This document shows positions 2,055 through 42,005 of a stretch of DNA of 64,000 nucleotides, piece by piece. The first letter of the stretch is position 1; every line of letters begins with the position of its first letter. The position numbers were made by a program, and so were the translations under genes. Source of the stretch: Patescibacteria group bacterium (lineage in GTDB: Bacteria; Patescibacteriota; Microgenomatia; UBA8517); contig JBGSJG010000001.1 in the NCBI GenBank assembly GCA_041742135.1, positions 67,151 to 131,150 of the forward strand, in the 5' to 3' direction. Below the pieces are notes generated by a model. The model was not told the origin of the DNA, made no database searches, and saw only the letters and a program-made list of their open reading frames with translations.

Positions 2055-5000
2055 TTATATTCTCAAACTGGCTCGCTCAGCGTCTACTGGGATGAGTCGG
2101 CCGATTATAACATTTTCTTTGAGGCCTAGTAACTTGTCCTTTTTACCCATGAGAGCTGCGTTGGCCAAAATGTCCGTTGTTTGCTCAAAGCTGGCTGCTG
2201 ACAACCAACTGCTGGTATAAAGTGCACGGCGGGTAATACCCAAAACTGTCTGGCGCGCGCTCGCCGGCTCTCCACCCGCGGCAAGTACTGCTTCGTTGTC
2301 TTCTTCAAAAGTTGCCTTCTCAACTTGATCTCCAGGCAAAAGGGAAGAGTCACCCGCTGTTGTGATTTTGACTTCATCGCTCATCTTTCTGACCATGACC
2401 TCAAAATGGCGGTCGTTAATCGAAATTCCCTGTGATTCGTAAACAGTCTGCAGTTCACGGACCAAATATTCCTGAGCGGCTTTGAGTCCTCTGATTTGAA
2501 GGATTTCTTTAATATCCAAAAATCCACTTGCGAGCTGAGTTCCTGCGGGTATTAACTGGCCTTCTTCAACCAAAAGTTTGCTGGTTTTAGGAATCATATA
2601 TTCGCGCTCTTCGGCTGGCTTGGTTTCAGTACCGATAAGCTTTACGTTCCAACCATCTTCCAGCTCTTCAATTGCAATCTTGCCTGCAATATCAGAAAGT
2701 GGCGAGAGTGATTTTGGAATTCTAGCCTCAAAAAGCTCCTCGACACGAGGCAAACCTTGGGTAACGTCAACACCGATAACTCCTCCAGAATGCTTGGTTC
2801 TCATGGTCAACTGAGTGCCTGGCTCGCCGATTGACTGAGCTGCGACAACTCCAACTGGAACTCCAATTTCGACGTCTTTTTTGGTAGACAAATCCCAACC
2901 GTAACACTTGGTACAAACACCATACCTAGACTTACAAGTAAGCGGTGAGAAAATTGAAACTGACTCTATTTCGGGAACTTCCCCAATCGCTTTTGCCATT
3001 TTCTCTGTGATAATTTCGCCTTTTTTGGCCAAAACTTCTTTACCATTTACCACATCAGCCGCGGCATAACGGCCCATCAAACGATCAGAAAATGCCTTAG
3101 CTCGCTCAGCTCGATAGATGACCAAAGATTCCTCTGTCTTACAATCAACCTCGCGAACCAAAACGTCGTGGGAAACGTCAACCAAGCGGCGAGTCAAATA
3201 CCCCGCGTCTGCGGTCTTTAGAGCCGTATCGGTCAAACCCTTACGAGATCCACGTCCGCTGGCGACGTATTCGAATACCGAAAGTCCTTCGCGGAAGTTA
3301 CTCTTAACAGGCAATTCGACAATTTTTCCGAGAGGATCCGTCACAAGTCCTCGCATACCCGCCAACTGCTTGATCTGATCGCGCGATGTACGACCGACTT
3401 TTGCATCAATAACCATTCTGACTGGACCATTTGGATCCACAAGCTCCCAAGTGCTGTCGGCAATTTGCTCTGTTGTCTCAATCCAGATAGCTTGAACCAA
3501 GCGTTTCTTTTCTTCGTTTGTAATTAAGCCCTGAGCAAAATTTGTTTCGATGACCGCTGCGCGCTCGTTGGCGGCTTCGATCATTTTGTTCTTTTCAGGA
3601 TGAACCTGAGCGTCGGAAATACCGAAGGAAAGCCCAGAAAGTGTGCCTCCCACAAATCCAATGTCCTTAATGTCGTCAATAAGCTGGATAACACGGTCAT
3701 GCTCGACTCGGCTGAAAGATTCGTCGACCAAGCCTTTGATAAGCCCTGAGTCCACGTTTTGGTTCACATAAGTGAATCCCTCGGGCAAAATTTCATTAAA
3801 CAAAATGCGGCCGACTGTAGTGTCAATTACTTTGCTGCCAATCCTTACACTTATGGTCTGGCGAATTCTGATCTTGCCAACCTGATAAGCAATAATCGCC
3901 TCGCGAGGTCCATAAAAGACAGTGTTGTGTGCTGGGATCTTATCATCCAAGCTTGTAAAGTAATAAACTCCCAAGGCAATTTCTTTTGATGCAGGAGCGG
4001 TCATTGGAACACCGCTTGCGGGGGATAATAAATTGCGATCAGAAAGCATCAAATCACGGGCTTCTTCGATAGCTTTGGTGGAAAGTGGCAAATGAATAGC
4101 CATTTGATCTCCATCAAAGTCTGCATTGTAGCCCTTACAAACTGCTGGATGGATTCGAATTGCGCTTCCTTCAATCAAAACCGGATAGAAAGCTTGAATA
4201 CCAAGTTTATGTAAAGTAGGTGCACGATTAAGCAAAACCGGGTGATTTTTGGTAATTTCTTCCAAAATATCAAACACCTCCGGCGGTCGCCTCTCGAGCA
4301 TGTTCTTGGCGGACTTCACATTTGGCGCAATACCTCGAGTAATCATTTCGCGAAGCACAAATGGCTTGGCAATTTCAAGCATCATGTCTTTTGGAATACC
4401 ACACTGGTTAAGCTTAAGCTCTGGTCCAACAACGATGACTGAACGTCCGGAATAATCCACGCGCTTACCCAAAAGATTTTGGCGGAATCGGCCTTGTTTA
4501 CCCTTGAGCATGTCTGACAGTGAGCGAAGCGGCTGCCTGCCTCGGCCACGGCGAGTGGCTTTTCTTTGCGATGCGTCAATCAATGAGTCCACTGACTCCT
4601 GAAGCATGCGCTTTTCATTACGCAGAATAATCTCAGGAGCACCAAGATTAATTAAGTGCTTTAGACGATTGTTGCGATTTATTACTCGGCGATACAAATC
4701 ATTCAAATCGCTTGTAGCAAAGCGTCCACCCGAAAGCTGAACCATAGGTCGAAGGTCAGGTGGCAAAACTGGCAATACTTTGATTACCATCCAAGCTGGG
4801 CTGGTTTTGGCAAGGCGCATGCCATCAACAATCTTTAACCTCTTGGTAAGTTTTAGGTACCTTGCTCCTCGACCTTTAATTGTGTCGATTTCAGATCTAA
4901 CTGACTTGGCTTCCTCATCCAAATTAAGCTTCTCCAAGCCTTCCAAAAGTGCTTCGGCGCCCATTTTTACGGTTACGAAGTCGGAAACTCCATAATTTGC

Positions 5001-8000
5001 TAATTGATCATATTCTTCCTCAGTCAAAAAGCCGTGAGGCTTAACGTCTTTGACAATCGAGCTAAGCTTGCCAAAAAGCTCGTCTGTCTTTTCCCCCGTT
5101 GAGCGCTCTTCTTCGTTTAATGCGGTAATGCGCTTTCTGGTATCAAGCTCCACCTCAGACAAAGCCAAAGCTAACTGATCTTTGTCCTTAGTTCTATTTT
5201 TAACTTTCTCTTCCCTCTCTTTAGCATCAGTTAAAGTCAATTCTCTCTTCTCCTTGTAAGACTGCTTAGATTCGATCGATTTATCAGCACGGATCTTTTC
5301 AAGCGTCTTCATAGCATCTTTTCTGCCATCAACATCGACCGACATGACAAAATATCTTGCAAAATACACAACTTGCTCAACAGCACGAGGAGGCAAATCC
5401 AAAAGCAAAGAAATCTTGCTTGGAGCGCCTTTAAAGTACCAAACGTGTGCAACTGGAGCTGCTAAAGAAATGTGCCCCATTCGCTCGCGTCGTACTCGGG
5501 ATTCTGTGACTTCTACTCCACACTTGTCGCAAACTACGCCTTTATAGCGAATTCTCTTGTACTTTCCACAATAACATTCCCAATCCTTGGTAGGCCCGAA
5601 AATACGCTCATCAAAAAGACCGTCTTTTTCTGGCTTGAGAGTTCGATAATTAATCGTTTCAGGCTTTACCACTTCACCGCGTGACCATGCTCGAATGTCC
5701 TCAGGTGAGGCAAGTTTGATCTGAAGCGAAGTTACATCTTCCAAATTGCGAAGCTGCATCAAAGGATCCGTGTGCTTTTTGTTTGCATCCTGTTTCGAAG
5801 CTTGCTCGCCTTCTTGTACTTCTTCGCCTTCAATTACAGTCTCGGCTGCAGCGACACCTTCAATATTGATCGCCAAGCCCAAAGAATTAAGTTCACGAAT
5901 TAATACTTTAAAGCTTTCAGGAACTTTTGCTTCAGGAATAGGTTCGCCTTTCACAATTGCGCCGAATGCCTGAGCACGGCCGACGATATCGTCAGACTTG
6001 ATAGTCAACATTTCCTGAAGAGTATGGGATGCGCGATGAGCTTCAAGTGCCCAAACTTCCATCTCCCCAAGTCTCTGGCCTCCCATTTGGGCTTTTCCAC
6101 CCAAAGGCTGTTGCGTAACGAGAGAATATGGCCCGGTCGAACGAGCGTGAGTTTTATCCTCAATCATGTGCTTAAGCTTGAGGATATATCCAATTCCTAC
6201 AACGGTTTTTTCTTCAAAGGCCTGACCGGTCTTTCCATCATAGAGCTGGACCTTACCGTCACCTGGAAGACCAACGCTCTCGAGTTCTTTTGAAATAATA
6301 TCTTCAGGAATTTCGTCAAAAACTGGAAGCGCACCTTTTTGGCCTTTTTTGCTCAAGGCCCAACCCAAATGTGTTTCCAAAAGTTGTCCCAAATTCATAC
6401 GTGCCAAAACGGAAAGAGGAGAAATTATAAGATCCACCGGAGTACCATCTTCCAAGTAAGGCATGTCTTCAGTTGGCATGATCTTGGCGATAACACCTTT
6501 GTTTCCATGTCGACCTGCGAGTTTGTCTCCAACGCTGACTTTGCGAAGCTGAGCTACTTTAACAACAACGCTCTTCATAACGCCAGGCCCGAGCTCGTCG
6601 CCATGGTCTTTATCAAGTATTGTTACGTCAACTACAATTCCACCTTCACCATGAGGAACTCGAAGTGAAGTATCGCGAACTTCACGGGCTTTCTCTCCAA
6701 ATATTGCGCGAAGAAGTCGCTCTTCTGAGTTAAGCTCAGTTTCCCCTTTTGGAGCGATCTTGCCTACCAAAATATCATTCGGGCCAACTTCGCTTCCTAC
6801 AACCACAATTCCATCTTCGGCCAAGTTTGAAAGTTCCATTTCAGCAACATTAGGAATATCTCGAGTGAGCTCTTCAGGCCCGAGCTTGGTCTCAACCATG
6901 TCTGCTTGGTATTCCTTAATGTGAATTGAAGTCAAAAGATCATCTTTTACCAAGCGGTTAGAAACCAAAATAGCATCTTCAAAGCCGTACCCACCGTAGT
7001 TTGCATAAGCCACAACTAAGTTTTGACCCAAGGCAAGTTCCCCGCCTTCGCAAGCAGGTCCATCAGCCAAAAGATCGCCTTTTTTAACTTCCTGGCCACT
7101 AATAACTCTAGTCTTTTGATTATAAGAAGTGGATTGCGCAGTACGCTTAAACTTACTTAGTGTGTAGGTCGCCTTATCACCTTTTTCCGAAATCTCAACC
7201 AAATCTGTACTTGTTTGCTCAGTCGGCTTGGCGAGTTTAATCTCAATTTTGTCTGCATCTGAATAACTTACTACTCCGTCATAATCGCTTCTTATTACGC
7301 GTCCCATTGCGCCAGCAACCGTGGCCTCCATTCCAGTTCCCACAACTGGAGCACCCGGATTAACCAAAGGAACAGCTTGGCACTGCATGTTGCTACCCAT
7401 GAGTGCACGGTTACCTTCATCGTGTGACAAAAATGGAATCAAAGATGCGGAAGCACCAAAAACTTGTCTTGGTGAAATATCTACATAATCAAGAAGGGTT
7501 GCGCTTCCTTCCAAAAACTCTCCGCGAAGCCTATAAGGTACGCGATCAGCTGTAATAAACCCCTTCGCGTCCACCGGAACATTGCTATGACTGATGTGAG
7601 CCTCTTGATCGTCGTCTGCCGTCATGTAAACAATTTCATCAGTGACACGGACTGATGTTTTACCATTTTTCTCAATCTTCTCGACTTTTTTGTATGGAGT
7701 TTCCAAAAATCCATACTCATTTACTCGGGCATAAAGCGCAAGATATGTAACAAGTCCGATGTTTGGCCCCTCGGGAGATCTGACTGGATCGATTCGGCCG
7801 TACTGAGAAGAATTGATGTCGCGAATTGAAAAACTTGCGCGCTCACGATTAATTCCGCCGGGTCCCAAAACCGAAACACGCCTTAAGTTGTCAATTTCTG
7901 AAAGTGGATTAGTATCGTCAAGAATTGTAGAGAGCTGATTGGATCTAAAAAACTCATTAATAGCAGCAACCAATGGTCTGGCGTTAATCAAACTTTGAGG

Positions 8001-9083
8001 CATTGGCTTGTCATCTGGAGAAATTAAACTCATTTTCTCCTTCACCGAACGCTCAAGCCGGAGTAAACCAACGCGGAAAGCGTGGGTCGCAACTAATTCG
8101 CCAACTCTCCTAAGCCTACGATTAGAAAGATGGTCAATATCGTCAATGTGGCCTTCACCATTTTGAAGACCAATCAAATATTGAAGTGTGGCAACCACAT
8201 CTTCACGAGTCAAAATCCATGTTTCTTTCTGGTTGGCAAGTGTAAGCTTTAAGCGTTTGTTGATTTTGTACCTTCCTACGCGTCCGAGGTCGTATCTTCG
8301 TGCGTCAAAAAACAAACTGGTAAAAAGTGTCTCGGCATTGTCAATAACTGCCGGCTCCCCAGGACGAAGCTTTCTGTAAATCTCCAAAAGTGCCTCTTCA
8401 CGAGTAGCAGTGTTGTCTTTTTCGATCGTTTTGGCAATATACTTGTGGTTTTCATCACGATCGACCCCAGCGAAGACTTCCTCCATCTGCTTCTGGGAAA
8501 CTCCCAAAGCACGAAGGAGTGTTGCGGCGTTTACTTTTCGTCTCTTGTCGATTCTGGCCGAAATTACGTCGGCGCGAGAAATCTCAAATTCAAGCCATGA
8601 ACCATGTAAGGGGCGGACTTCAGCTGTGTGAAGAAGTCTTCCGGAAGAGCGATCCCGGCTCCCAGCAAAATAAATACCAGGAGAGCGCACAATTTGGTTA
8701 ATGACTGCTCGCTCGATGCCGTTTATGACAAATGTTCCAGAAGAAGTCATTTGTGGAATATTTCCAAAAAAGACTTCTTGGTCGACTGATTCTCCTGTGC
8801 GCTTGTTGATTAAAGTTGTATTAATCTTAAATGGTGCAGAAAAAGTTAGACCCTTTTCTAAAGCGAACTTCGGAGAATTTTTAGGAGCTTCTAGGGTATG
8901 TTCCCCTAAAATAAGCTGCCAATTTTTACCTGTAAAATCGTCAATTGGGGTAATTTGGGCAATTTCCTGAGAAATTCCCTCGGTTAAAAACCAATCCCAG
9001 CTGTCTCTTTGAACCAACGCAAGATCAAGTTTGGGGAGATCTTTTTCATCTTTTCCAAAGTTTCTTCGTTGTGCTTTAAGCAT
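2055..9083 (-). CDS. rpoBC: DNA-directed RNA polymerase beta-beta' fusion: a single 2342-aa ORF spanning rpoB and rpoC
   Basis: The N-terminal half carries rpoB motifs (…[21 protein letters not shown]…, …NMQCQAVPL…). A linker …[23 protein letters not shown]… has no stop. The C-terminal half starts with rpoC motifs (…[43 protein letters not shown]…[10 protein letters not shown]…). Confidence 0.9.
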
Positions 9084-21455: not shown

Positions 21456-22175
21456 TTAATCTGTAAATTCAAAGGTGGAGAGGATTTGATTAACTGAGTC
21501 GATAGATGCAGATTTATTAACCATAATCTCAAGTCCTCCAGAAATATAAGGAACATGGTAAATATCAAATTTCACTTGGGATGAAACGGAGGTATATTTG
21601 GTTGCTTCTTTCTGGCCAACTGATGCACTGCTACTTTTCCAATCTGAAGTTGGAGTTGGAGCAATCAACAGATTAAAATGCTGTATATCAATCACCCGAT
21701 CCACGTACTCTAAGTTACCAAGTGCATAAATCAAAATATTGTTGGTTTGTGAGTATACGGCTCCGCCCGCATCTGCATCATAACCTTGGATAACGAAATC
21801 AAGAGGGTAGCTAAAACTATAGTTATATGCCGTATTTGAATAACTCTTCCAATCGCTCATGCCGACTTCCTCTGAGGGTTCAAGACTTACTGATGATTCT
21901 TCCACCACAGCTTTTGCAGTTGGTGAAGGCTCTGTGATTTGCGGTTCGGTTTTGCTGGTCACTACAAGAACCAAAGCTACAATAATTAGCAGTAGGATTG
22001 CCACAATTCCCACAAGAACCATTGCAATCGTGTTTTTAGATTTTGGAGGTTCTGGGGTTGGTGGGACTATGGGTACTTCAGGAATTACTGGCTCGGCTAC
22101 TGGCAATTGTCCGGTTGGGGTAACTGGAACTACTGCTGGTGTAGTTTCTGGAGTTGGGTTTTGATCTGGGTTCAT
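21456..22175 (-). CDS. N-anchored bitopic protein, paralogue 1 of a tandem family. It has a Pro-rich cytoplasmic N-terminal tail, a TM helix, an extracytoplasmic domain and a conserved C-terminal ILSTFEFTD.
   Basis: Translation MNPDQNPTPETTPAVVPVTPTGQLPV…KSKNTIAMVLVGIVAILLLIIVALVLVV…SVNQILSTFEFTD. Confidence 0.7.
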   Translation of the reverse strand: MNPDQNPTPETTPAVVPVTPTGQLPVAEPVIPEVPIVPPTPEPPKSKNTIAMVLVGIVAILLLIIVALVLVVTSKTEPQITEPSPTAKAVVEESSVSLEPSEEVGMSDWKSYSNTAYNYSFSYPLDFVIQGYDADAGGAVYSQTNNILIYALGNLEYVDRVIDIQHFNLLIAPTPTSDWKSSSASVGQKEATKYTSVSSQVKFDIYHVPYISGGLEIMVNKSASIDSVNQILSTFEFTD

Positions 22176-22178
22176 GGT

Positions 22179-23231
22179 TTAATCAGTAAATTCAAAAGTG
22201 GAAAGAATTTGTGACGCAACTGAGTTACTGTTTGGTTCAGAATAATTAATAAAATAAAATACTGTCTTGTCACTATTTGCAAAAAATAGCACCGTTGTGC
22301 CCCCGTTGGTTATTGTCTGTGCATTAACTCCGTCAATTAAAGTTACCGACTCCACTGAATCGCCATTCTTAAATAAAGTGCTGTTAAACTCGCTCCACTC
22401 TTCGAATGTTGGCTTGTCTGGAATTTCCGAACCAACCACAGAGATCGCGATATAAGAATTTGGCTCAGCCGGGTCAGAAAAAACAAATATAGCACTTGTA
22501 TCCGTTTCAGCTTCTTCTCGGGTCACGCTCCAAGTGTCTGGGTGGTTTACCTCAAAACCGTAATCCGAATTTGAAAAAGCCAACCAATTGGATGGGGGTT
22601 CAAAGTTTTGTAAATTTTGTTGGACATCTTCGCCATTTTCAATCTCCGCTTCCGATTGTCTGTTGTCGACCAACTTATTGTCGCTGTCGTATGTGCTTAC
22701 AATCTTTTGCTTTAGATTTTCGACGTCGATATCAAAAGAAGGAGAGATGGCTTTTCCGTGTATGTCCTTTGCGTCTATTTCCCAAGCATCCCCTTCGCTC
22801 CCCGTGACAACTAAGTACTGATTATTATCTTTTTTATCCACCACCACCCCTACCCAATCCTGCTTCGTTTGCTCCGCACTGCCGGGGCCCACAAACAAAA
22901 CTACATCTCCAACCTTAGGTTGCCCAAAACGGTACGACAGTTTTTCGATCCACACCTGAGAGCTATCGGTAAGTAAAAGATTACTATCCTTTGCACTTAT
23001 GCGATATGGAGAAAGGACAAAGACATACAAAGTCATTCCCAAAGCAAGCAAAACCAAAACTGCACCAATAATCATGAATATTTTTCTTTTAGATTTTGGC
23101 TTTTCGGGAGTTGGGGAAATTTCAGGTTGAATTTCAGTCGTCGGAACGGCAACTGGTAATTGTCCGCCGGTTGGACTAACAGGAGCTACTGCTGGTGTAG
23201 TCTCTGGAGTTGGGTTTTGATCTTGGTTCAT
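22179..23231 (-). CDS. N-anchored bitopic protein, paralogue 2 (ILSTFEFTD family)
   Basis: It has the same MNQDQNPTPETTPAV… Pro-rich tail plus TM architecture and ends …SVASQILSTFEFTD. It is 3 bp from the neighbouring paralogue. Confidence 0.7.
   Translation of the reverse strand: MNQDQNPTPETTPAVAPVSPTGGQLPVAVPTTEIQPEISPTPEKPKSKRKIFMIIGAVLVLLALGMTLYVFVLSPYRISAKDSNLLLTDSSQVWIEKLSYRFGQPKVGDVVLFVGPGSAEQTKQDWVGVVVDKKDNNQYLVVTGSEGDAWEIDAKDIHGKAISPSFDIDVENLKQKIVSTYDSDNKLVDNRQSEAEIENGEDVQQNLQNFEPPSNWLAFSNSDYGFEVNHPDTWSVTREEAETDTSAIFVFSDPAEPNSYIAISVVGSEIPDKPTFEEWSEFNSTLFKNGDSVESVTLIDGVNAQTITNGGTTVLFFANSDKTVFYFINYSEPNSNSVASQILSTFEFTD
23066..23138. repeat. Exact 73-bp repeat, second copy at 24322..24394. 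It encodes the identical …EIQPEISPTPEKPKSKRKIFMIIGA… segment of paralogues 2 and 3.
   Basis: Base-by-base comparison in the window gives identical 73-mers. Flanking sequence diverges. Confidence 0.8.
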
Positions 23232-23234
23232 GGT

Positions 23235-24482
23235 TTAGTCAGTAAATTCAAAGGTGGAAAGGATTTGGTTTAGAAAATCATTGCTTTCCCCACCTGAAGT
23301 CTTAGTTAGCAAAAAGATCTGACTTCCTCCTCCTGGAATCACGACGTATGTCATTCCATTACTGCCTGAGTCGTCAGCGTTTACAACCAACGCATTTACC
23401 CCGTCAACACCAATCTCTTCGTAAGTAAGCTCGTATGTGCTCAAATCAAATTTCTCGGCTAACCATTCTCTGCGAGAACCACCTGAATAATCATCGTATA
23501 AAGTGATAGTAAAGCCAGCTCCACAGTAAGGCCCGCTACAATTTAAAAACGATGCTTTACTGCCTTTCTGTGTCGCTTCATCGTTTAACTGATAATAATC
23601 AGGGTACTTTACAGAAAAACCAGCCCCGTTGTCTTCGTATTTCAACCAGTCTTCGGTAATCTCAAATTTCGGCGCAGGCACAGGTGAGCTAGCCGCAGAA
23701 GCATTGGAGAATTCAAAAGTGGAGAGGATTTGATCAAATATTTCCATGTCTCTGTTTTTAATTTCTTCTACTTCTTGTGAACTTTTTCCTCCAACACCCC
23801 AAGAAATTATATATTTGGTATCCCCAACAACGGTCCATACCTCTTTTGAATAATTATTTGAAGGTTGATTTTCAATTGTGCGTTCATAAACCAAAGCGTC
23901 TTGCCCATCTAACTTTTGAACCGAAATCGAAGAATAAGCAAAATCTGGAAAATCTTTACCAGTCTGCTCTAATGCTTGACGTTTCTCCTCGAGTGACTTT
24001 CCTTCTGTATAATCTAAATCCTGAATATCAAACGCAATTACAGACCCCCTACCATCTTCCTGTTGATTTTCAGGAAAAGAATTTATTTGATAATAGGATT
24101 TACTAACACCTCTGCCGTACGACCAAACATGCCAATTCTTGGGAATAGACACAGTAAACAAGCCACCACCATTGTAAGTATTCCAATCACCCGTCTCGTC
24201 CTCCATGGTGGCCTCAGGGGTGTTCGTTGGCTCAACCACCCTCTGGTCTTCGGCCGGTTTTTGAATGACTGAAAATGTAAATATCCCCACCGCGCCTAAA
24301 ATCAGCAAAGTTAAGATCGCTCCAATAATCATGAATATTTTTCTTTTAGATTTTGGCTTTTCGGGAGTTGGGGAAATTTCAGGTTGAATTTCAGAGGTCG
24401 GAACTGCAACTGGTAATTGGCCTGTTGGAGTAACTGGAGCTACAGGTGGAACTTGCGAGACTGGGGCTTCTTCTGGATTCAT
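23235..24482 (-). CDS. N-anchored bitopic protein, paralogue 3 (ILSTFEFTD family), with an internally duplicated extracytoplasmic module
   Basis: It has two copies of the terminal motif (…EIFDQILSTFEFSNASAAS… and C-terminal …FLNQILSTFEFTD). The N-terminal tail and TM are nearly identical to paralogue 2. Confidence 0.7.
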   Translation of the reverse strand: MNPEEAPVSQVPPVAPVTPTGQLPVAVPTSEIQPEISPTPEKPKSKRKIFMIIGAILTLLILGAVGIFTFSVIQKPAEDQRVVEPTNTPEATMEDETGDWNTYNGGGLFTVSIPKNWHVWSYGRGVSKSYYQINSFPENQQEDGRGSVIAFDIQDLDYTEGKSLEEKRQALEQTGKDFPDFAYSSISVQKLDGQDALVYERTIENQPSNNYSKEVWTVVGDTKYIISWGVGGKSSQEVEEIKNRDMEIFDQILSTFEFSNASAASSPVPAPKFEITEDWLKYEDNGAGFSVKYPDYYQLNDEATQKGSKASFLNCSGPYCGAGFTITLYDDYSGGSRREWLAEKFDLSTYELTYEEIGVDGVNALVVNADDSGSNGMTYVVIPGGGSQIFLLTKTSGGESNDFLNQILSTFEFTD

Positions 24483-24494
24483 ATTGCCAGTGTC

Positions 24495-26147
24495 TCACAC
24501 TTCAATAACTACCGGCAAGATCATCGGTCTGCGGCCAATCTCATCAAAGAAGAAATGCTCTAGAGTGTCGACCACAATTTCTTTGAGCCTATGGGTATTT
24601 ATTCCTTGCCTATTCGCCTGCTCCATTACTCGGTCAACCCCTTTTTGGAGTACTGCTTTACTGTCTTTTTCAAAAACAAATCCGCGAGTGATAAGCTCGG
24701 GGTTTCCCGCGATTTTATTCGCGGCTTTATCAAATTGAATCAAGGCCACTACAAAGCCCTCTTGAGACAATATTTTTCGATCGCGAAGGACGATGTTGCC
24801 CACGTCTCCCACCCCAAGCCCGTCAACCAACACGTCACGAACAGGAATTCTCTTGCCTCTTTTGGCATTTCCATTTTCATAAATTATGGAATCCCCCGGC
24901 ATAAGCTCAAAGATAGAATTTGCAGGATTACCCAAGCCTTGAGCCAACAAGCTATAAGCACGCATGTGCCGTACTGTCCCTCCGATTGGAATAAAATACT
25001 TGGGCTTTATAAGTCCAAACAAGAATCTTATATCTTCCTGCGATCCGTGGCCTGAAACATGCAAATCTTCCTGAAGATCGTAATAATGAACATCCACGTT
25101 AAGTTCCAAGAGACGATCCACAATATAATCTACTTTCACTTTTGACCCAGGTGGTGCTGGGTCTGCCGAGAAAACAACGCTGTCCCCAGCCTCGATTTTA
25201 AGAAAACTATGAGATTCTTCAGCTACCCGGTGCAGCGCACTTCCCGCCTGGCCATAACAGCCGGAAATTATGTATAAGATTTTGTTTCTAGGTGCACGAG
25301 CGGCCGCATGCGCATTCATTTCAATGTTAGATCCATAGTTCAAATAGCCAAGCCTTCGGGCAATCTCAGCTTTAGCCTCCATCGAGCGACCGATAAAAGC
25401 CACTTTGCGGCCATTTTTCTCGGCTGCTCGGATCGCCTGTTGCATACGGCTAATGTTGCTTGAAATAGTCGTGAAGTACACACGGCCTGTAGCCTTTGAG
25501 ACCACCTGCTCAATGCGTTCCTCTAAAACACTTTCACTTTCAGTGTGCCCCGGGTTTGTGGAACCCAAAGCATCTGAGGCTAAGCCTAAAACGCCTTTAC
25601 TGGCCAGTGAAACCGCTTTAGCCACGTCAAAAGGCTTGCGATCCACAGAGCTCCAGTCAAATTTGTAATCTGGTACATGCATAAGGACTCCCTGTGGAGT
25701 TTCAATTGCAAGCCCAACAGCGTCGGGGACAGAGTGCGAAACACGGAAGATGTTTATATTAAAAACCCCAAGCTTTGTGGCAATTGCCCGATCAGGGTCC
25801 ATGACGTTAACGCGTACACCTTTTACACCATAATCGGCCAATTTATCTTCAATGAATGCAGCCGTGAGGCGTGTTGCGAAAATTGGAGCTTGGACTTCTT
25901 TGAGCAAAAATGGAAGCGCGCCCAGATGATCTTCGTGGCCGTGAGTAATTACAATTCCTCGAAGCTTGTTTTTGTTTTTAAGAATGTAGTCAAAATCGGG
26001 AATAACCAAGTCAACTCCGAGCATTTCGGGGTCGGGAAAACCCACTCCACAGTCCACTACAACCATGTCGTTGCCATATTCGTAGACGTAAAGATTTTCG
26101 GTTGCACCAGTTGTGCCCGAAAGGGCGATGAATTTTAGTTCAGCCAT
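24495..26147 (-). CDS. rnj: Ribonuclease J (metallo-beta-lactamase / beta-CASP)
   Basis: It has the HxHxDH motif (…ITHGHEDHLGALP…) and beta-CASP and C-terminal domains. Length is 550 aa. Confidence 0.9.
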   Translation of the reverse strand: MAELKFIALSGTTGATENLYVYEYGNDMVVVDCGVGFPDPEMLGVDLVIPDFDYILKNKNKLRGIVITHGHEDHLGALPFLLKEVQAPIFATRLTAAFIEDKLADYGVKGVRVNVMDPDRAIATKLGVFNINIFRVSHSVPDAVGLAIETPQGVLMHVPDYKFDWSSVDRKPFDVAKAVSLASKGVLGLASDALGSTNPGHTESESVLEERIEQVVSKATGRVYFTTISSNISRMQQAIRAAEKNGRKVAFIGRSMEAKAEIARRLGYLNYGSNIEMNAHAAARAPRNKILYIISGCYGQAGSALHRVAEESHSFLKIEAGDSVVFSADPAPPGSKVKVDYIVDRLLELNVDVHYYDLQEDLHVSGHGSQEDIRFLFGLIKPKYFIPIGGTVRHMRAYSLLAQGLGNPANSIFELMPGDSIIYENGNAKRGKRIPVRDVLVDGLGVGDVGNIVLRDRKILSQEGFVVALIQFDKAANKIAGNPELITRGFVFEKDSKAVLQKGVDRVMEQANRQGINTHRLKEIVVDTLEHFFFDEIGRRPMILPVVIEV

Positions 26148-26177: not shown

Positions 26178-26813
26178 CTACGCTGCCAGAAGTTCAAATA
26201 CTTCAGAAACCTCCTCGAGTGAATTCAATTGGGATTCTAAACTCGCAATTTTCATTTGCACCTGTTCCACTTTTTCATCTTTGCCAGAATCACCATCTTG
26301 CGTTTGAAGCTCGGCTAGCGCTGCTTTTGCTTCGGCCAACTTTGCTTCAAGCTCAGCCTTAAGCCTTTGCTGCTCTTCTTTTTGCCTTTTAACTTCCTCG
26401 GCTCGCCTAGCCTGAAATTCCTGCTTTTCTCTTTGATAGACGGTTACTAAACCATCATCTGCATAAAACCTGTTCACATCATCTGGAGTTAACCAAGCCT
26501 CGGCTTGATCAGTCCCATTCATTGCTACAGCCAATAAATGCTCGTATCTTTGAGTATTTGTCCAGTCCTCTCTGTTGGTCCCCGAGACATCTTTGGGATC
26601 CTGTGTTTTCAATTCCAAAACGTCTGCTGGTTTCTCTAAATTAAGTTCAACAATGGCTCTTGCAGCCACCCCCTGAAGAAGCGCATCCACCCCTTTTTCA
26701 TAATCATGAAAGCCGAGTTCGGGTCGTTTAAGACCCACTCCGCGAAGATCCTCTTTGCCCAAATTAGGGACAAGCGAGTCAATATCGTTAGGTGTTTGCT
26801 CATTCATGCTCAT
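26178..26813 (-). CDS. Hypothetical protein with a C-terminal coiled coil
   Basis: The tail is charged and helical (…RRAEEVKRQKEEQQRLKAELEAKLAEAKAALAELQ…). No family was recognised. Confidence 0.45.
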   Translation of the reverse strand: MSMNEQTPNDIDSLVPNLGKEDLRGVGLKRPELGFHDYEKGVDALLQGVAARAIVELNLEKPADVLELKTQDPKDVSGTNREDWTNTQRYEHLLAVAMNGTDQAEAWLTPDDVNRFYADDGLVTVYQREKQEFQARRAEEVKRQKEEQQRLKAELEAKLAEAKAALAELQTQDGDSGKDEKVEQVQMKIASLESQLNSLEEVSEVFELLAA

Positions 26814-26822
26814 AATATACCT

Positions 26823-27875
26823 CTAAACATATTCAGAAGCAATAAATTCTTTGACGTTGCCTTCATTTATCACAAACTTTGTTCCTTTTCCCTCTACCAT
26901 TTGTTTGGCAACTTTTCGCACCAAGCCATAAATTGTCCTCTGAAGTGTACGAATTCCAGCATCAAAACCCAAAGGACGAACGAGCTTTGACCAGACTGCG
27001 TCTTCCACAACCACAGCATCCTGTGGAATATTTGCCTCTTTTAGCGCATGAGGCAGAATGTATTTTTTCCCGATGATCGTCTTTTCCTCGTCGTTGTATG
27101 AAGGCATGTTAATAGGCTCAAGCCTATCCATGACGGCTGTAGCTATGCCTTGAGTATTGTTTGCTGTAGCTATAAAAATAGCCTCAGATAGATCGAACGG
27201 ATAATCCAAATAGTGATCCACGAACGCTTTGTTTTGCTCGGGATCGAGTAGCTCCACCAAAACTCCCATAATGGAAGCGCGGCCTTCGTCTGTTACACGG
27301 TCAATTTCATCCAAAAGAATTACCGGGTTTCGGCTTTGAGCGCTACGCAAGGCTTTAATAACTTTTCCGGGCTCTGCCTCAGGATGCATACGGGACTGGC
27401 CACGCAGATCCAATGGGTCCCCCATGCCTCCAAAAGGAATACGAGCAAACTGCCTGCCCATAGCCTCAGCAATTGAAACTGCCATGGTAGTTTTTCCAGT
27501 TCCCACGAGGCCCACAAAACACATAATGGGCGCTCGAGCCATGCCCTCTTTGTTATTTTTATTAAGCTGCATCACAGCCATGTATTCCAAAATTCGGTCT
27601 TTAAGACCTGTTAAACCGTAATGGTTTTTTTCAAACACTTCGCGTGCACGACCCAAGTCCAAAATATCATCCGTGCGTTTGTTCCAAGGAAGGCTTACCA
27701 CCCATTCAATATATTTATTGACGCGGTCCACCTCAGGCAAAAAAGATTGAGAACCAGTAAGAAGTGCAAGCTGGTCAATACGGATTTTAATGTTCTCGTG
27801 AAGATCGGCAGGAATCTGCCCACTTGAGAGTTTCTTTTCCAAATCCACCAAAAGATCTTTGGGGTTATTATCCAT
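26823..27875 (-). CDS. Lon-family AAA+ ATPase module with no Lon N-domain and no S16 peptidase domain
   Basis: It matches the Lon ATPase core (…LPWNKRTDD…HYGLTGLKDRILEYMAV…, Walker A GLVGTGKTT, Walker B VILLDEID, sensor …ATANN…, …LLDPEQN…). The ORF ends where the protease domain would begin. Confidence 0.75.
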   Translation of the reverse strand: MDNNPKDLLVDLEKKLSSGQIPADLHENIKIRIDQLALLTGSQSFLPEVDRVNKYIEWVVSLPWNKRTDDILDLGRAREVFEKNHYGLTGLKDRILEYMAVMQLNKNNKEGMARAPIMCFVGLVGTGKTTMAVSIAEAMGRQFARIPFGGMGDPLDLRGQSRMHPEAEPGKVIKALRSAQSRNPVILLDEIDRVTDEGRASIMGVLVELLDPEQNKAFVDHYLDYPFDLSEAIFIATANNTQGIATAVMDRLEPINMPSYNDEEKTIIGKKYILPHALKEANIPQDAVVVEDAVWSKLVRPLGFDAGIRTLQRTIYGLVRKVAKQMVEGKGTKFVINEGNVKEFIASEYV

Positions 27876-27911: not shown

Positions 27912-30269
27912 TTACCTACTGAAGCGCTTTTTGTCACTTGATCCAGACACTAATCTGGAAGTCGGGAAATGAGGCCCAGAGGAACCGCGGTCACGTCGGT
28001 CTCCGCTTCGATCGTCTCGCCTACCCGTTCGGCTTCGCTCAGGGTTATAACCACCACGATCACTGCCACTTCTAAATCCACCTCGGCTGCCGCCCATTCG
28101 ACTACGCTCAGGGCTATAGCCTCCACGATCTCCACCACCCATTCGGCTTCGCTCAGGGTTATAACCTTCGCGAGGTTCGCGTGGTTTTTCCTTCGAAGCA
28201 TCCAAGATCATAGACAAATTGAGTCTGCCCATCTTGTCAATCTCTTTTACTCGAACGGTTACAGTGTCGCCTTCTTTTGCAATATCTGCTGGGTCTTTAA
28301 CAAATTCCTCAGCCATGTCTGAAACGTGGACCAAGCCCTCTTTACCCGGAAGAATTTCCACAAATACTCCAAAAGGCTGCATTCTTTTAACTAACCCTTC
28401 ATAAATTTCTCCGGGGATTACTTCTTTTACCATGCCGCTAACCCACTCAACTGCTTTGTCGACACTCTCTTCACTGGTTCCAGAAATGCTTACTGTTCCG
28501 TCATCCTCCACATCAACTGTGGCTCCTGTATCGGCCATAATCTTTTTGATCATCTTGCCCCCGGGGCCAATGATTTCGCCAATTTTCTCAACTGGGATTT
28601 TAACGGCTTTGATCTTTGGTGCATAAGTTGAAACATTAGTACGAGAAGCTTTAATAGTCTCAAGCATCGAAGCCAAAATAAACGCTCTTCCCTCTTTTGC
28701 CTGAGTAAGAGCCTCCGCCAACATCTCGGGTGTTAAATTTAGAGTTTTTACATCGAGCTGAAGTGCTGTAATTCCTTTTGATGTTCCGGCAACTTTAAAG
28801 TCCATGTCACCATTAAAGTCTTCAATTCCCATGATGTCGGACAAAATTGCATATTTTTTAGCAGATTCGACAACGAGCCCCATGGCAATTCCAGAAACTG
28901 GAGCTTTGATTGGTACTCCTGAGTCCATCAAAGCAAGTGTTGAGCCACAAGTGGAAGCCATAGAAGTTGAGCCATTTGAGCTCATAATTTCGCTGACCAA
29001 ACGAATGGCATAAGGAAATTCTTCAGCAGAAGGCAATACCGGCATCAAAGCGCGCTCTGCCAAGGCACCATGACCAATTTCGCGGCGGCTTGGAAAACCA
29101 ACTCTTCCAGCTTCACCAACAGAAAACGGCGGCATGATGTAGTGATGCATGTAGCGCTTTTCCTCTTCACCTTCAGCGGTTTCAATTAATTGACCCATGG
29201 AAGGAGTTCCCAAAGTGGCGACGGTCAAAGCCTGGGTAGATCCTCTTTGGAAAATTGCAGACCCGTGAGTTCGTGGCAAAACGCCAACACGGCTTGAAAG
29301 CGGACGGATTTCGGTGTGCTTCCTACCATCTGGTCGCTTACCAGCCAAAATCATTTCGCGAATGCGATCGTGAATAAGTCCATCAATAATGCCAAAAACC
29401 ATGGCCTTTTCTGTTTCTTCAACTTCGCCTTTAACTTCCTCAATTAAATCATCCAAAACGCTGTTCTTGCCTTCTTTAGTAGCCAAAGCAGCAACAACCT
29501 CGTCGATTTTCTTCTCAGAAAGTTTTGTTACTTTTTTCACAAGCTCGGCGTCTTCCGGAAGCTTTGGAGCTTCTTGTTTGTCAACTCCCCATTCGCTGGC
29601 AAATTCATTGATAAATTTAAGAACCGCCTTAGACTCTTTTTGAGCGAAATTAATTCCGCCAATTATTTCCTCTTCAGTAGCTTCATTTGCCCCCGCTTCG
29701 ATCATAACTACTGCGTCAGATGTTGAAGAAACTACCAATTCCATATTGGAAAATGAACTTTCTGTGTCTGTTGGATTAACGAAGTATGCTCCGTCTTTCA
29801 TGCCAACTCTCAAAGTAGCTACAGGTCCTTCCCAAGGAAGTCCTGAAGCGGCAACTGCAGCAGAAACTGCCAAAGGTGCGACGTCCACAGGCGAATTAAC
29901 CATATCAACGGACAAAAGCGTAATAATTATCTGAACTTCTTTTTTATAAGACTTCGGAAACAGAGGGCGAATGGAGCGATCAATCAAGCGGCCAGTTAAA
30001 ATTTCTTCATCTGTGGGGCGGCCTTCACGCTTAACCCATCGGCTGCCTTTAATGCGGCCTCCAGCGTAAAGTCTTTCTTGGTACTCAATTGAGAGAGGGA
30101 AATAATCCAATTCTTGTTTTAACGGAGCCGCAACTACTGTCGCCAAAACAACAGTTTCGCCGTAAGTGGCCAGTACCGCTGCATCTGCTTGGCCAGCAAG
30201 CTCTCCAATGGCTAGGGTTAAGTCGCGTCCACCGAGGCTTAATGTTTTTTCTACTTTTTTATTTACCAA
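27912..30269 (-). CDS. pnp: Polyribonucleotide nucleotidyltransferase (PNPase) with a C-terminal Arg/Gly-rich repeat extension
   Basis: It has two RNase PH-like domains, KH and S1 (…GRDLTLAIGELAGQADAAVLATYGETVV…). The tail …GGYNPERSRMGGGDRGGYSPERSRMGGSRGG…GGYNPERSRTG… is encoded by visible DNA repeats at about 27970–28200. Confidence 0.95.
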   Translation of the reverse strand: MVNKKVEKTLSLGGRDLTLAIGELAGQADAAVLATYGETVVLATVVAAPLKQELDYFPLSIEYQERLYAGGRIKGSRWVKREGRPTDEEILTGRLIDRSIRPLFPKSYKKEVQIIITLLSVDMVNSPVDVAPLAVSAAVAASGLPWEGPVATLRVGMKDGAYFVNPTDTESSFSNMELVVSSTSDAVVMIEAGANEATEEEIIGGINFAQKESKAVLKFINEFASEWGVDKQEAPKLPEDAELVKKVTKLSEKKIDEVVAALATKEGKNSVLDDLIEEVKGEVEETEKAMVFGIIDGLIHDRIREMILAGKRPDGRKHTEIRPLSSRVGVLPRTHGSAIFQRGSTQALTVATLGTPSMGQLIETAEGEEEKRYMHHYIMPPFSVGEAGRVGFPSRREIGHGALAERALMPVLPSAEEFPYAIRLVSEIMSSNGSTSMASTCGSTLALMDSGVPIKAPVSGIAMGLVVESAKKYAILSDIMGIEDFNGDMDFKVAGTSKGITALQLDVKTLNLTPEMLAEALTQAKEGRAFILASMLETIKASRTNVSTYAPKIKAVKIPVEKIGEIIGPGGKMIKKIMADTGATVDVEDDGTVSISGTSEESVDKAVEWVSGMVKEVIPGEIYEGLVKRMQPFGVFVEILPGKEGLVHVSDMAEEFVKDPADIAKEGDTVTVRVKEIDKMGRLNLSMILDASKEKPREPREGYNPERSRMGGGDRGGYSPERSRMGGSRGGFRSGSDRGGYNPERSRTGRRDDRSGDRRDRGSSGPHFPTSRLVSGSSDKKRFSR

Positions 30270-30624: not shown

Positions 30625-31578
30625 TTAACTTACAGAAGTCCCTTTGTAGATCTTTGGATTTTTGAGCCAAGAGGTGGGTGGGTTGACCACTTCACCTTGT
30701 GGCACCTCGGAAGTCTCTTCTTCGGGATTTTGATCATCAAGCTTGGCGGCGCCTTTAACGGCACGTAGTGGCATAGGCATGGGAAGTGGCCCTGCCGGCA
30801 TTGGCTGGCCTGGCATCATAGGCATCCCGGGCATCATTTGTATACCTGCTGGCCTAAATTCTTCCTTTTTGGTGTATTTTCCACCCAAGGCCATCAGCTC
30901 GCCAGACAATTTAAAGGTGTTCGCGCCAACTTCTTTACTGTTAAAATTATTACTGCCTTCGTGAATACCGGACAAGAGATTTGAAGCAATATCTGCATTT
31001 ATGCTGCCTTCAAAAGCTTTTAAGTAATCTCCAATTACTTCACTAATTGAAGAAGCTGGTCTTGAAAGGGAAATTATATTACGACCTGCGGGTGCGTTCA
31101 TATCATTTATTCCAATATGAACAAGCTTGGCTTGAGCCAGCTCATCAGTCAAAAGTGGAGGGAAGCTCTCGGGACGATCTCCGCCAATTAAAATTACTGT
31201 ATCTGCGGAAACCCCTGAGTAACTGGCGTGTACCTGGTCCTTTTTGGGAGGCTCCATCTGGCTTTTGGGGATAACCGTAAGCTTAAACTGCTCATTTTCT
31301 ACGTCATAGTTGACGCGCTCAATGTTTTCGGCTGGATAATCCAAAAAGCTTAGTACCAAGTTTTTACTACCAATTTCGTCGCTTATGCGGTCTACTCCTA
31401 CCAAACGATTAAACAAAACTCTCATTTGAGTAGGGCAACTTATTACGGCATCTTTTTTAGATTCAAGCGCCAAATAAAGCGAAAGACCGGCTGCGACTTG
31501 GTCGAAATTTGGCTCCTTTGGAAGGAGTATCAAAAGAGAATTTGAGGCCTCGATAACTGATTTAAATGATTGTTCCAT
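30625..31578 (-). CDS. DHH/DHHA1-family (NrnA-like) protein with degenerate catalytic motifs and a Met/Pro-rich C-terminal tail
   Basis: It occupies the NrnA position of the nusA-infB…rpsO-pnp operon. The fold motifs are recognisable (…SGIHEGSNNF… like GIxxDT, …GGKYT… like GGGH). The metal-binding residues are replaced (PKEPNFDQ instead of HxxPDGD). The tail is …MMPGMPMMPGQPMPAGPLPMPMPL…. Confidence 0.5.
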   Translation of the reverse strand: MEQSFKSVIEASNSLLILLPKEPNFDQVAAGLSLYLALESKKDAVISCPTQMRVLFNRLVGVDRISDEIGSKNLVLSFLDYPAENIERVNYDVENEQFKLTVIPKSQMEPPKKDQVHASYSGVSADTVILIGGDRPESFPPLLTDELAQAKLVHIGINDMNAPAGRNIISLSRPASSISEVIGDYLKAFEGSINADIASNLLSGIHEGSNNFNSKEVGANTFKLSGELMALGGKYTKKEEFRPAGIQMMPGMPMMPGQPMPAGPLPMPMPLRAVKGAAKLDDQNPEEETSEVPQGEVVNPPTSWLKNPKIYKGTSVS

Positions 31579-31612: not shown

Positions 31613-32992
31613 TCACTTAATTGCGTGAATTATATCACCTTTTTCAAAAGCCACCAGAGGAGACATAATAACACCGCATTCTTCCCCTGCTTTTGCCTCA
31701 GATAGCTCGTTTTTGCCACGCCTCATCGATACAACTTTGGCACGGCCCAATTCACGCTCACCTCGCATAAGCATAAGCTTGTCGGTTTTATTAATTCGAC
31801 CTTCCAAAATCTTGCATCCCGCGACCAATGTCTTATTAAAGGGAAATGTAGCCAATATTTCGGCCTTGCCTAAAATCACAGCCTGGCCAGCTTTCACTTT
31901 GTCTAAAGCGTACTGCATAAGCTCGTAAATGATTTTAAATTCAGAAATCTCGACGTCTTCAGTTTCGGCGAGTTTTCTAACCTGGGCCGGAACCTTCGCT
32001 TCAAATGTCAGGATAATTGCTCCGGATGTTTTAGCAAAAAAGACGTCTGACTCGGTTACCTCACCAATGGCCGAGGTTAAAACGACTATTTCTTTGCCCA
32101 AGGAAGCGAGTATCGCCTCGAGTGCCCCTGACGTTGCTGCCTTGAGCACCACTCCAAGCTGATCGTGGCCAACTTTCTGAGATTTTTTTGTGGACTGGCC
32201 TTGCGGCTTGGGATCACTTCCCGATATTAACTTTGCACCCACAGGTGGAGTCTCTGTAAAGCCCAAAATAGCTACAGGTTCACCTGGAGTTGCCTCACGA
32301 ACGTTTTCGCCACTCGTGCCAAAAAGCCCTTTAACACGGGTCGATGCAGTCTCGGCGGACACATCACTTGATACTTTTAGTGTCCCGTTTTTAATAACGA
32401 CAGACACCATCACTCCCCGTTTATCTTTGTTTGTTTCAATCACATAGGCCTCCAAAGGAGCATCAGCATCGCCGGCTACTCCATTTACTTCGGCCATTAA
32501 AGTGATAAGTTCCAAAAGTTCCTTAATTCCACGGCCTTCTTTTGCAGCTACTTCAACAGATGAAACAGCGCCTCCTCGGCCTTCAAAAAATATCTCTTCG
32601 GCCTCAAGCTGCCCGCGTGCGCGCTCAACATTGGCTGAGGGTAAATCAACTTTCGTAAAAACCACAATCATGGGGATTTTATTTTCTTTGATGTAGCCCA
32701 AGGCTTCTTTCGTTTGAGGCATCAGTCCGTCATCAGCTGCAACCACGAGTAAAACTATGTCGGCAACGCGCGCGCCACGAGCTCGCATCGACGAAAATGC
32801 CGCGTGCCCCGGAGTATCAACAAAAGTGATTGTGCCGCTATCGGTCACAACTTTAGAGGCGCCAATTCCTTGAGTAATACCGCCGGCTTCACGAGAAGCA
32901 ACGTTGGATTTTCGAATCGCGTCTAGAAGTGTAGTTTTGCCGTGATCAACATGGCCCAAAACTGTAACTATTGGTGGTCGTTTGTCGCTCAT
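31613..32992 (-). CDS. infB: Translation initiation factor IF-2, a short form that starts at the G domain
   Basis: Motifs [20 protein letters not shown] and TKVD. Length is 459 aa with no N-terminal extension. Confidence 0.9.
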
Positions 32993-40244: not shown

Positions 40245-40545
40245 AATTTTAAACTAGCACTAATATACTGCGAGTGCCAAACAGTTGTCAAGAGTTATTT
40301 TCTTCAATGGCATTATAGCCACCCCAAGTACCTTGATCGTCATTTTCTCCAGCAAGCCTCGCCCAGCCTTTAATTCCTGCCAGCATGTCATCGTTATTCC
40401 CAGGTGGGACACGATGGTCGTCACGGTTAGGATTGTTTCTTCTTCTTTTCTCAATCTCAGTCTGTTTTCGCGCCTCCGTTGCAATAGCTTTGCCAGCACT
40501 TTTGCTAACACTTTCTATAGCGTCAACTTCTTTGCCATAAAAACC

Positions 40546-41972: not shown

Positions 41973-42005
41973 TTAGCAGAATGCTAACACGAGTGATAAG
42001 AAGTG

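Follow-up and report, generated by a model that had tools for sequence, protein, structure and literature searches.

Lon is among the most conserved of the ATP-dependent proteases and, to our knowledge, every Lon described so far carries its ATPase and its peptidase fused in one chain. LonB has a membrane anchor inserted in the AAA+ module, followed by a protease domain, LonC combines degenerate Walker motifs with a protease domain, and LonC and Lon-like-Ms are relatives of Lon with a dead or degenerate ATPase and an active protease. ClpX and HslU, in the same AAA+ branch, pair with separate peptidases, ClpP and HslV, respectively. Mitochondrial Lon (Pim1/LONP1) also has a chaperone activity that is independent of proteolysis, which provides a precedent for a Lon AAA+ ring that does not cut. 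Here, we describe lonAAA, a gene for a stand-alone LonA-type AAA+ ATPase in a stretch of 64,000 nucleotides (the window) from a Patescibacteria group bacterium (contig JBGSJG010000001.1), and the family to which it belongs. The literature that could be searched yielded no description of either a Lon without its protease or any Lon from the Candidate Phyla Radiation (CPR)/Patescibacteria.

The gene and the N-terminal part of its product, with lengths in amino acids (aa), are located as follows:

26823..27875, minus strand: lonAAA coding sequence including the TAG stop codon, 350-aa stand-alone LonA-type AAA+ ATPase
27555..27875, minus strand: residues 1–107, the end of the LonA long helix and the three-helix bundle before the AAA+ module, aligned to E. 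coli Lon 244–~350

The open reading frame (ORF) starts with ATG and ends with TAG. In its product, a Pfam scan detected AAA (residues 118–254, E = 1.4e-17) and Lon_lid (residues 279–332, E = 4.4e-08), and detected neither LON_substr_bdg (PF02190) nor Lon_C (PF05362), the S16 peptidase domain with the Ser-Lys dyad. The NCBIfam model TIGR00763 ("endopeptidase La") covers the protein through model positions 251–571 of 795 only (E = 7.8e-96), and the score of 322 bits is below the equivalog cut-off of 608; PRK10787 matches through positions 244–580 of 784 only, with 244 bits versus a cut-off of 891. By tblastn, residues 244–580 of E. coli Lon align to window positions 27875–26838 with 36% identity, and no other alignment was obtained. 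Across all 350 aa, the identity to LonA proteins is 34–37%, and the closest solved structures are all LonA, with 3m6a at the top (E = 1.7e-71). Before the AAA+ module, the three-helix-bundle region bears the LonA-type motif Y55-I-E-W58...L-P63-W64, and helices were modelled at residues 5–18, 23–37, 45–61, 74–84, and 89–107. An AlphaFold (AF2) model made from 27 family sequences (mean predicted local distance difference test score, 83.5) was superposed on the LonA chains from human, yeast, Yersinia, Thermus, Meiothermus, and E. coli over ~340–350 columns, with query-normalised template modelling scores of 0.76–0.87. From these Pfam, NCBIfam, and structure matches and the model superposition, lonAAA is made up of the LonA long-helix end, the three-helix bundle, and both AAA+ subdomains, large and small.

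The C-terminus of lonAAA lies four residues past the position aligned to E. coli Lon 580, and the linker to the protease domain in Meiothermus taiwanensis LonA (MtaLonA) comprises residues 584–589 (PMC8503904). An earlier reading of the window, made from its letters only and hereafter called the sequence-only reading, had stated that only the Lon ATPase core aligns and that the frame halts where the serine-protease domain would begin. The domain, structure, and tblastn matches bear out the first statement, and the end of the protein at the protease-domain linker bears out the second.

Compared with LonA (E. coli Lon, B. subtilis LonA 3m6a, MtaLonA, and human LONP1), lonAAA shares the helical bundle, the AAA+ alpha/beta subdomain, and the lid, but lacks the N-terminal globular domain and the S16 Ser-Lys peptidase domain. 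In total, four features that define LonA do not hold for lonAAA: it has neither the N domain nor the S16 domain, its score falls short of the curated cut-off, and its pore-loop residues, described below, differ. It is neither LonB nor LonC either, because it has no protease domain, its Walker motifs are intact, and its best matches are all LonA. As in LonC and Lon-like-Ms, one enzymatic half has been given up, but the opposite half has been kept.

The lost domains were not found at other positions in the window or at related loci. Since the stop codon of the upstream gene, pnp, is only 36 bp away from lonAAA, no N-domain is hidden on its 5′ side. In tblastn searches of all frames of the 64-kb window, the protease domain of E. 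coli Lon (residues 585–784) gave nothing better than a weak match (E = 0.1) at 1793–2041, far from lonAAA, and the N-domain (residues 1–240/310) gave no credible match. Whole or frameshifted, neither S16 nor the N-domain was observed within the searched flanks of 10 kb at 85 related loci or of 6 kb at 83 further loci, and no peptidase gene recurs as a neighbour among these ~170 loci. In particular, positions 26178–26822, for which a check for a frameshifted S16 remnant had been proposed, contain none in any frame. A frameshifted or separate remnant of either domain was therefore ruled out by tblastn on the window and on both sets of loci.

The residues of the ATPase site are as follows:

27489..27512, minus strand: Walker A, G122-LVGTGKT129, invariant in the family
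27300..27320, minus strand: Walker B, I186-LLDEID192, from the alignment
27231..27248, minus strand: pre-sensor-1 beta-hairpin's base loop, L210-D-P-E-Q-N215, aligned to MtaLonA D444-P445-E446
27156..27158, minus strand: sensor-1 Asn240, from the alignment
27123..27125, minus strand: Arg finger Arg251 (MtaLonA Arg484), acting in trans, invariant
26949..26951, minus strand: sensor-2 Arg309 (MtaLonA Arg541), in the Lon_lid subdomain, from the alignment

Thus, lonAAA shares with LonA the LDPEQN base loop, Walker A and B, sensor-1, the Arg finger, and sensor-2. Walker A, Walker B, sensor-1, and LLDPEQN had already been read as intact in the window, and all of them were observed here, in addition to the Arg finger and sensor-2. 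GKT, DE, the sensor-1 Asn, the finger Arg, and the sensor-2 Arg are present in essentially all full-length members of the clade. A pre-sensor-1 beta-hairpin with its base loop is present as in the HslU/ClpX/Lon/RuvB branch, and Glu213 in this loop varies among relatives (S/G/T/R/K/Q). The ATP of the adjoining subunit is, in LonA, the target of both the Arg finger and the LDPEQN base loop (PMC8503904). The retention of Arg251 and of the base loop suggests an oligomeric ring, and the invariance of the trans-acting Arg251 points to a probable hexamer that hydrolyses ATP.

The two pore loops differ from those of LonA:

27366..27392, minus strand: pore-loop 1, R162-M-H-P-E-A-E-P-G170, from residue alignment to 3m6a and MtaLonA 8k3y
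27276..27293, minus strand: pore-loop 2, T195-D-E-G-R-A200, with Gly198 at the position of MtaLonA Trp431

For pore-loop 1, the LonA equivalent is R-T-Y-[IV]-G-[AS]-[ML]-P-G, and in lonAAA the Tyr is replaced by His164, the Ile/Val by Pro165, the Gly by Glu166, and the Met by Glu168, resulting in H-P-E-A-E versus Y-[IV]-G-[AS]-[ML]. In the gap-free alignment, His164 corresponds to MtaLonA Tyr397 and Gly198 to Trp431; the latter position is Phe, Leu, or Met in other LonA proteins, so that pore-loop 2 has Gly versus Trp/Phe. Tyr397 and Trp431 contact the substrate in pore-loop 1 and pore-loop 2 of MtaLonA, and both are needed for degradation (PMC8503904). The aromatic-hydrophobic-Gly loop of threading AAA+ unfoldases is absent from lonAAA, which has H-P-E. 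The rebuilt pore loops are a feature that is absent from the sequence-only reading, in which the protein was proposed to be an unfoldase or a partner of another factor. A generic Lon-like unfoldase is doubtful because both substrate-gripping pore loops have been rebuilt, with His164, Gly198, and two added acidic residues.

These changes extend to the whole family. H164, P165, E166, A167, and E168 are each at least 90% conserved in the family, the clade-wide signature of pore-loop 1 is [DE]-A-E-P-G, and the net charge at the tip of this loop is approximately −2 in the clade versus 0 in canonical Lon. When 294 proteins were split by the length that follows the AAA+ module on its C-terminal side, those with fewer than 60 aa exhibited H (117), F (7), Y (11), or assorted other residues at the Tyr position, whereas those with a C-terminal domain exhibited Y (140), W (12), or F (9). 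Among the short proteins with Y, fragments of ordinary Lon cut at contig ends account for at least 6 of 11. As judged from these sequences, the loss of the protease is coupled to a rebuilt, acidic pore.

The best 120 database homologues are all 331–373 aa in length, contain AAA and Lon_lid only, and are 65–100% identical to lonAAA; the named organisms among them are Woesebacteria or Microgenomates. A scan with one genome per species identified a relative in at least 594 GTDB species, and the best 80 of these are Woesebacteria, Microgenomates, Shapirobacteria, and "Patescibacteria group" metagenome-assembled genomes (MAGs), with complete chromosomes of 0.80–0.98 Mb among them. The truncated form, 340–400 aa in length and proposed earlier for a check in related genomes, is thus kept in the relatives. 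More protease-less forms, with 40–59% identity, were found among representatives at 50% identity. The search seeded with the most distant form, P0156, returned at least 120 further proteins of 342–507 aa, with names including Dojkabacteria, and no Lon_C was present in the 120 proteins listed from it. Distant protease-less forms therefore occur in Dojkabacteria and other Patescibacteria.

In the neighbour-joining tree of the AAA+ modules, the protease-less proteins formed one clade in 38 of 40 bootstraps. The ratio of nonsynonymous to synonymous substitution rates (dN/dS) was 0.08 for a close pair of loci, L008 and L003; between the window and L007 (87% identical), dN was 0.10 and dS was saturated. 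These results indicate that the lonAAA family is ancient, is under purifying selection, and is not a pseudogene. The nearest full-length Lon proteins were considered as a CPR ancestor and rejected, since those with names are from Deltaproteobacteria/Myxococcales and Veillonellaceae, not from CPR.

Distant members of the clade often have low-complexity extensions (Q/P- or S/T/N-rich) of 100–350 aa at the N- or C-terminus, which stand where the N or P domains of Lon would be (P0128, P0139, P0141, P0148, P0170, and P0183). Database labels for proteins of the lonAAA type are "AAA family ATPase", "ATP-dependent Lon protease", and "Lon protease", and those that name Lon protease are misleading. Many lonAAA-bearing GTDB MAGs, L009, L013–L015, and L021–L023 among them, are titled "uncultured Gammaproteobacteria bacterium", and one is titled "Alphaproteobacteria"; these titles look mislabelled because of the gene content and the 60–69% identity to Woesebacteria proteins. 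Outside the window, two or three tandem copies of AAA plus Lon_lid followed by a single Lon_C were observed in P0121, P0122, P0126, P0132, and P0136, the first of which carries the name Candidatus Dependentiae. In P0146, an Elusimicrobia protein of 3865 aa, two stretches match lonAAA.

The domain content, conservation, monophyly, purifying selection, ATPase residues in cis and in trans, and rebuilt pore loops of lonAAA are direct observations. Their best explanation, in which we place roughly even confidence, is that lonAAA would be a Lon-derived ring that hydrolyses ATP without degrading proteins and serves, with its acidic pore, as a chaperone or remodeller. According to this explanation, lonAAA is a functional LonA descendant of one old CPR clade (Dojkabacteria and the Microgenomates, with Woesebacteria and Shapirobacteria among the latter) that has lost both its N-terminal domain for substrate recognition and the chamber of the S16 peptidase. 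The ring would hydrolyse ATP and would not thread and degrade ordinary polypeptides, because it has no proteolytic chamber and no Tyr-Ile/Val paddle. The pore would be lined by His-Pro-Glu-Ala-Glu, with about two negative charges per subunit at its tip, and may engage basic, disordered segments of clients, for example ribosomal or nucleic-acid-binding proteins, which would be released intact after remodelling. A weak link to proteostasis is provided by the divergence of lonAAA from groES-groEL in 16 loci, the synteny with the dnaK operon, and dnaJ beside lonAAA in the rearranged locus L091. The precedent of Pim1/LONP1 differs in that the chaperone activity there comes from a full-length protease with normal pore loops.

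Several points weigh against a non-degradative chaperone or remodeller. Approximately 30% of the clade representatives at 50% identity have an aromatic residue at the Tyr position or beside it, and aromatic-retaining loops such as FPDAE and YPEAE occur in a minority of the clade; the loss of the paddle is therefore not absolute, and these members may grip substrate somewhat. The basic nature of the clients is deduced from charge alone, and the assembly of the ring without the protease domain is an assumption. Furthermore, the chaperone-gene neighbourhoods could be an inherited order that has no functional meaning.

The neighbouring genes in the window are as follows:

27912..30269, minus strand: pnp (PNPase, 785 aa), upstream of lonAAA
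26178..26813, minus strand: 211-aa coiled-coil ORF, 9 bp downstream of lonAAA, in the same reading frame
24495..26147, minus strand: rnj (RNase J, 550 aa), after the coiled-coil ORF

The order on the minus strand is hrcA-grpE-dnaK-x-dnaJ-...-nusA-infB-(317-aa ORF)-rpsO-pnp-lonAAA, followed by (coiled-coil ORF of 211 aa)-rnj-(three secreted paralogues)-ftsK-...-alaS. The placement of lonAAA between pnp and RNase J in the sequence-only reading agrees with these coordinates. In the window and in L002/L003, lonAAA is downstream of hrcA-grpE-dnaK-dnaJ on the same strand. The block infB-X-rpsO-pnp-lonAAA-...-rnj is almost universal in the loci of 80 species, and pnp is directly 5′ of lonAAA in most of the 85 related loci. 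The slot between lonAAA and rnj is occupied in 63 loci by an ORF of ~205 aa, which is a family-4 uracil-DNA glycosylase (UDG; hmmsearch, E = 0.07), and 30 loci also have a metallophosphoesterase-like ORF of ~155 aa there. The distant loci (n = 83: 80 from the metagenome scan plus L089–L091) include ~25 that do not have pnp, udg, or rnj as neighbours; in 16 of these metagenomic loci, lonAAA is divergent from groES-groEL, 105–340 bp apart, and has its own conserved promoter-like motif.

The RNA-turnover neighbourhood proposed earlier therefore stands as a conserved gene order, but the order is not specific to RNA turnover, because UDG is often inserted between lonAAA and rnj and another lineage has groES-groEL. 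Gene order thus gives two weak hints, one to nucleic-acid enzymes and one to chaperones. As the main block reflects inherited housekeeping synteny, neither hint settles the matter.

The hint to nucleic-acid enzymes corresponds to a rival explanation that we consider rather unlikely: lonAAA would be an accessory ATPase of nucleic-acid metabolism, together with PNPase and RNase J in a degradosome-like arrangement or with UDG, and could, for example, remove proteins bound to RNA or DNA, or put together and take apart the nuclease complex. For this explanation, the order pnp-lonAAA-rnj, with a pnp-lonAAA gap of tens of bases, is found in nearly all of the 80 Woesebacteria/Microgenomates species and also at 55% identity and in Dojkabacteria. 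Among the distant loci, pnp is directly upstream in 20 of the 56 informative ones, and udg and rnj are directly downstream in 21 and 11 of 65, respectively. In L091, only lonAAA and udg remain together, beside dnaJ, with overlapping stop and start codons, so that this adjacency survives the rearrangement. The short intergenic stretches from pnp through lonAAA and the coiled-coil ORF to rnj showed no promoter-like or terminator-like site, and the basic Arg-Gly-Gly (RGG) tail of the PNPase in the window could bind the acidic pore. However, the block belongs to an extended housekeeping cluster that rearranges slowly (dnaK operon, nusA, infB, rpsO, pnp, ftsK, and alaS), and the pnp-lonAAA linkage may therefore be inherited rather than functional. 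The ~25 deep-clade loci without these neighbours, 16 of them with groES-groEL instead, also argue against an accessory role, as do the Shapirobacteria-type PNPases, which adjoin lonAAA although they have no RGG tail. In addition, no UDG gene is present in the 64-kb window.

A second rival, which we regard as unlikely, is that lonAAA would be an ATP-dependent switch or scaffold, a "pseudo-translocase" in which the acidic loop serves for binding or regulation only. This would be consistent with the variation at the Tyr position (H, F, R, S, N, Q, or E) next to the fixed [DE]-A-E-P-G, and with the variability of Glu213 in the trans-acting base loop. Conversely, the Arg finger, sensor-2, and Walker B are strictly kept in every lineage, which argues for real ATP turnover in a ring, and a pore loop that is itself conserved speaks for a pore still in use.

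It is quite improbable that lonAAA is the ATPase half of a split protease, to which an S16 or other self-compartmentalising peptidase encoded elsewhere in the genome docks, although such an arrangement, too, would run counter to a non-degradative ring. The ATPase machinery is fully conserved, and the related ATPases ClpX and HslU work with a separate peptidase; like them, lonAAA is a stand-alone ATPase chain of the same AAA+ branch with a pre-sensor-1 hairpin. They differ in that their pore loop is of the aromatic-hydrophobic-Gly kind and in that each has its own peptidase partner, which is often encoded nearby; neither feature was seen at the lonAAA loci. Searches for a Lon_C-like sequence came up empty in the 64-kb window, within 10 kb at 85 loci, and within 6 kb at 83 more, and fission normally leaves the two halves adjoining. 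Moreover, the pore loops that would feed the peptidase are without the Tyr-Ile/Val and Trp/Phe contacts, and a split LonA was not found in the literature searched.

Finally, lonAAA might be a pseudogene, a full-length lon's decaying paralogue, or an artefact of assembly or frameshift. Nothing except the missing domains speaks for this reading, which is refuted by the conservation data and is extremely improbable, given the same length and ends across hundreds of independent assemblies, the dN/dS of 0.08, the lack, in every frame of the window, of anything left over from the lost domains, the invariant catalytic motifs, and the clean gaps of 9–36 bp to the neighbouring genes.

The lonAAA family is large, clearly selected, and mechanistically odd, and the chaperone or remodeller function proposed for it is deduced from its sequences. 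A bacterial group with minimal genomes keeps only the motor of Lon, under strong selection and with the substrate-gripping residues rebuilt, which makes lonAAA a natural experiment for asking what work remains for a Lon ring once proteolysis is gone. Its signature, [DE]-A-E-P-G in pore-loop 1 and Gly in pore-loop 2, is ready for mutagenesis. The family also bears on protein quality control in CPR. As a tentative extension, which we think is more probably wrong than right by a wide measure, Microgenomates and Dojkabacteria might have turned Lon into a new type of non-degradative AAA+ machine whose acidic [DE]-A-E-P-G pore pulls specifically on proteins that are basic, nucleic-acid-binding, or ribosomal, with protein quality control conducted without Lon proteolysis; the RGG tail of the neighbouring PNPase would then be among the possible clients.

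This PNPase tail, the C-terminal ~100 aa at 27912–28200 on the minus strand, is an Arg/Gly-rich repeat (GYNPERSRMGGG...), with RGG/FGGGR repeats in relatives, and ends with a conserved SGPHFPTSRL..KK.F.R motif. It is also present in L006, L041, L054, L057, L061, L062, L068, and L073; most Woesebacteria have the RGG tail, and the Shapirobacteria-type loci do not. Strict co-occurrence of the tail with lonAAA was rejected as a rule, since the Shapirobacteria-type loci keep lonAAA beside a tail-less PNPase.

The 211-aa ORF matches no Pfam family and has no S16 similarity, and its C-terminal half is coiled-coil-like, in agreement with the unrelated coiled-coil gene that had been noticed downstream of lonAAA. 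It occupies the slot of the family-4 UDG gene of most relatives. As no homologue of it was found in any related locus, it is lineage-specific and was rejected as a conserved partner of lonAAA; it was also rejected as a diverged version of the ~205-aa slot gene, because that gene is the UDG and is unrelated. Nor is it related to the metallophosphoesterase-like ORF of ~155 aa. At 26813–26825 on the minus strand, the TAG of lonAAA and the start of the 211-aa ORF are in frame with three codons between them, and hypothetical read-through of the TAG would give a fusion of ~565 aa; the coiled-coil ORF is absent from the relatives.

In the groES-groEL-divergent loci (L095, L106, L110, L122, L148, L149, L152, etc.), the promoter-like motif is TTGTCAAG-N13-15-GTCTGCTAAT, located 20–60 bp upstream of lonAAA. 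Its position immediately before the start codon suggests that the leader is very short or absent. In the window, CIRCE-like (controlling inverted repeat of chaperone expression) repeats are located at 40254–40280 and 41973–41999, just 5′ of dnaK/hrcA, with 3–4 mismatches to TTAGCACTC-N9-GAGTGCTAA. With up to four mismatches allowed, the surroundings of lonAAA in the window and the groES-lonAAA spacers yielded no CIRCE beyond weak 4-mismatch matches. Control of lonAAA by HrcA/CIRCE was therefore rejected, the CIRCE-like sites being only upstream of dnaK and hrcA. Membership in a defence system was likewise dropped, since PADLOC gave only weak, generic AAA matches for lonAAA (DolB, E = 2.7e-07).

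Several other genes in the window are worth recording. infB (31613–32992, minus strand) encodes a short translation initiation factor IF2 of 459 aa that is without the long N-terminal region. The 317-aa ORF that follows it, before rpsO (30625–31578, minus strand), matches no Pfam family and is present in nearly all related loci; in L091, a DHH-domain gene occupies its slot. Three neighbouring paralogous ORFs of 239, 350, and 415 aa (21456–24482, minus strand) have in common an N-terminus rich in Pro, a single predicted membrane helix, and a C-terminal QILSTFEFTD motif, which the 415-aa paralogue has twice; the match to PsbP_2 is weak. At 2055–9083 on the minus strand, rpoB and rpoC are fused into a single ORF of 2342 aa, with the Rpb2 domains at residues ~69–1074, followed by the Rpb1 domains at ~1115–2258.

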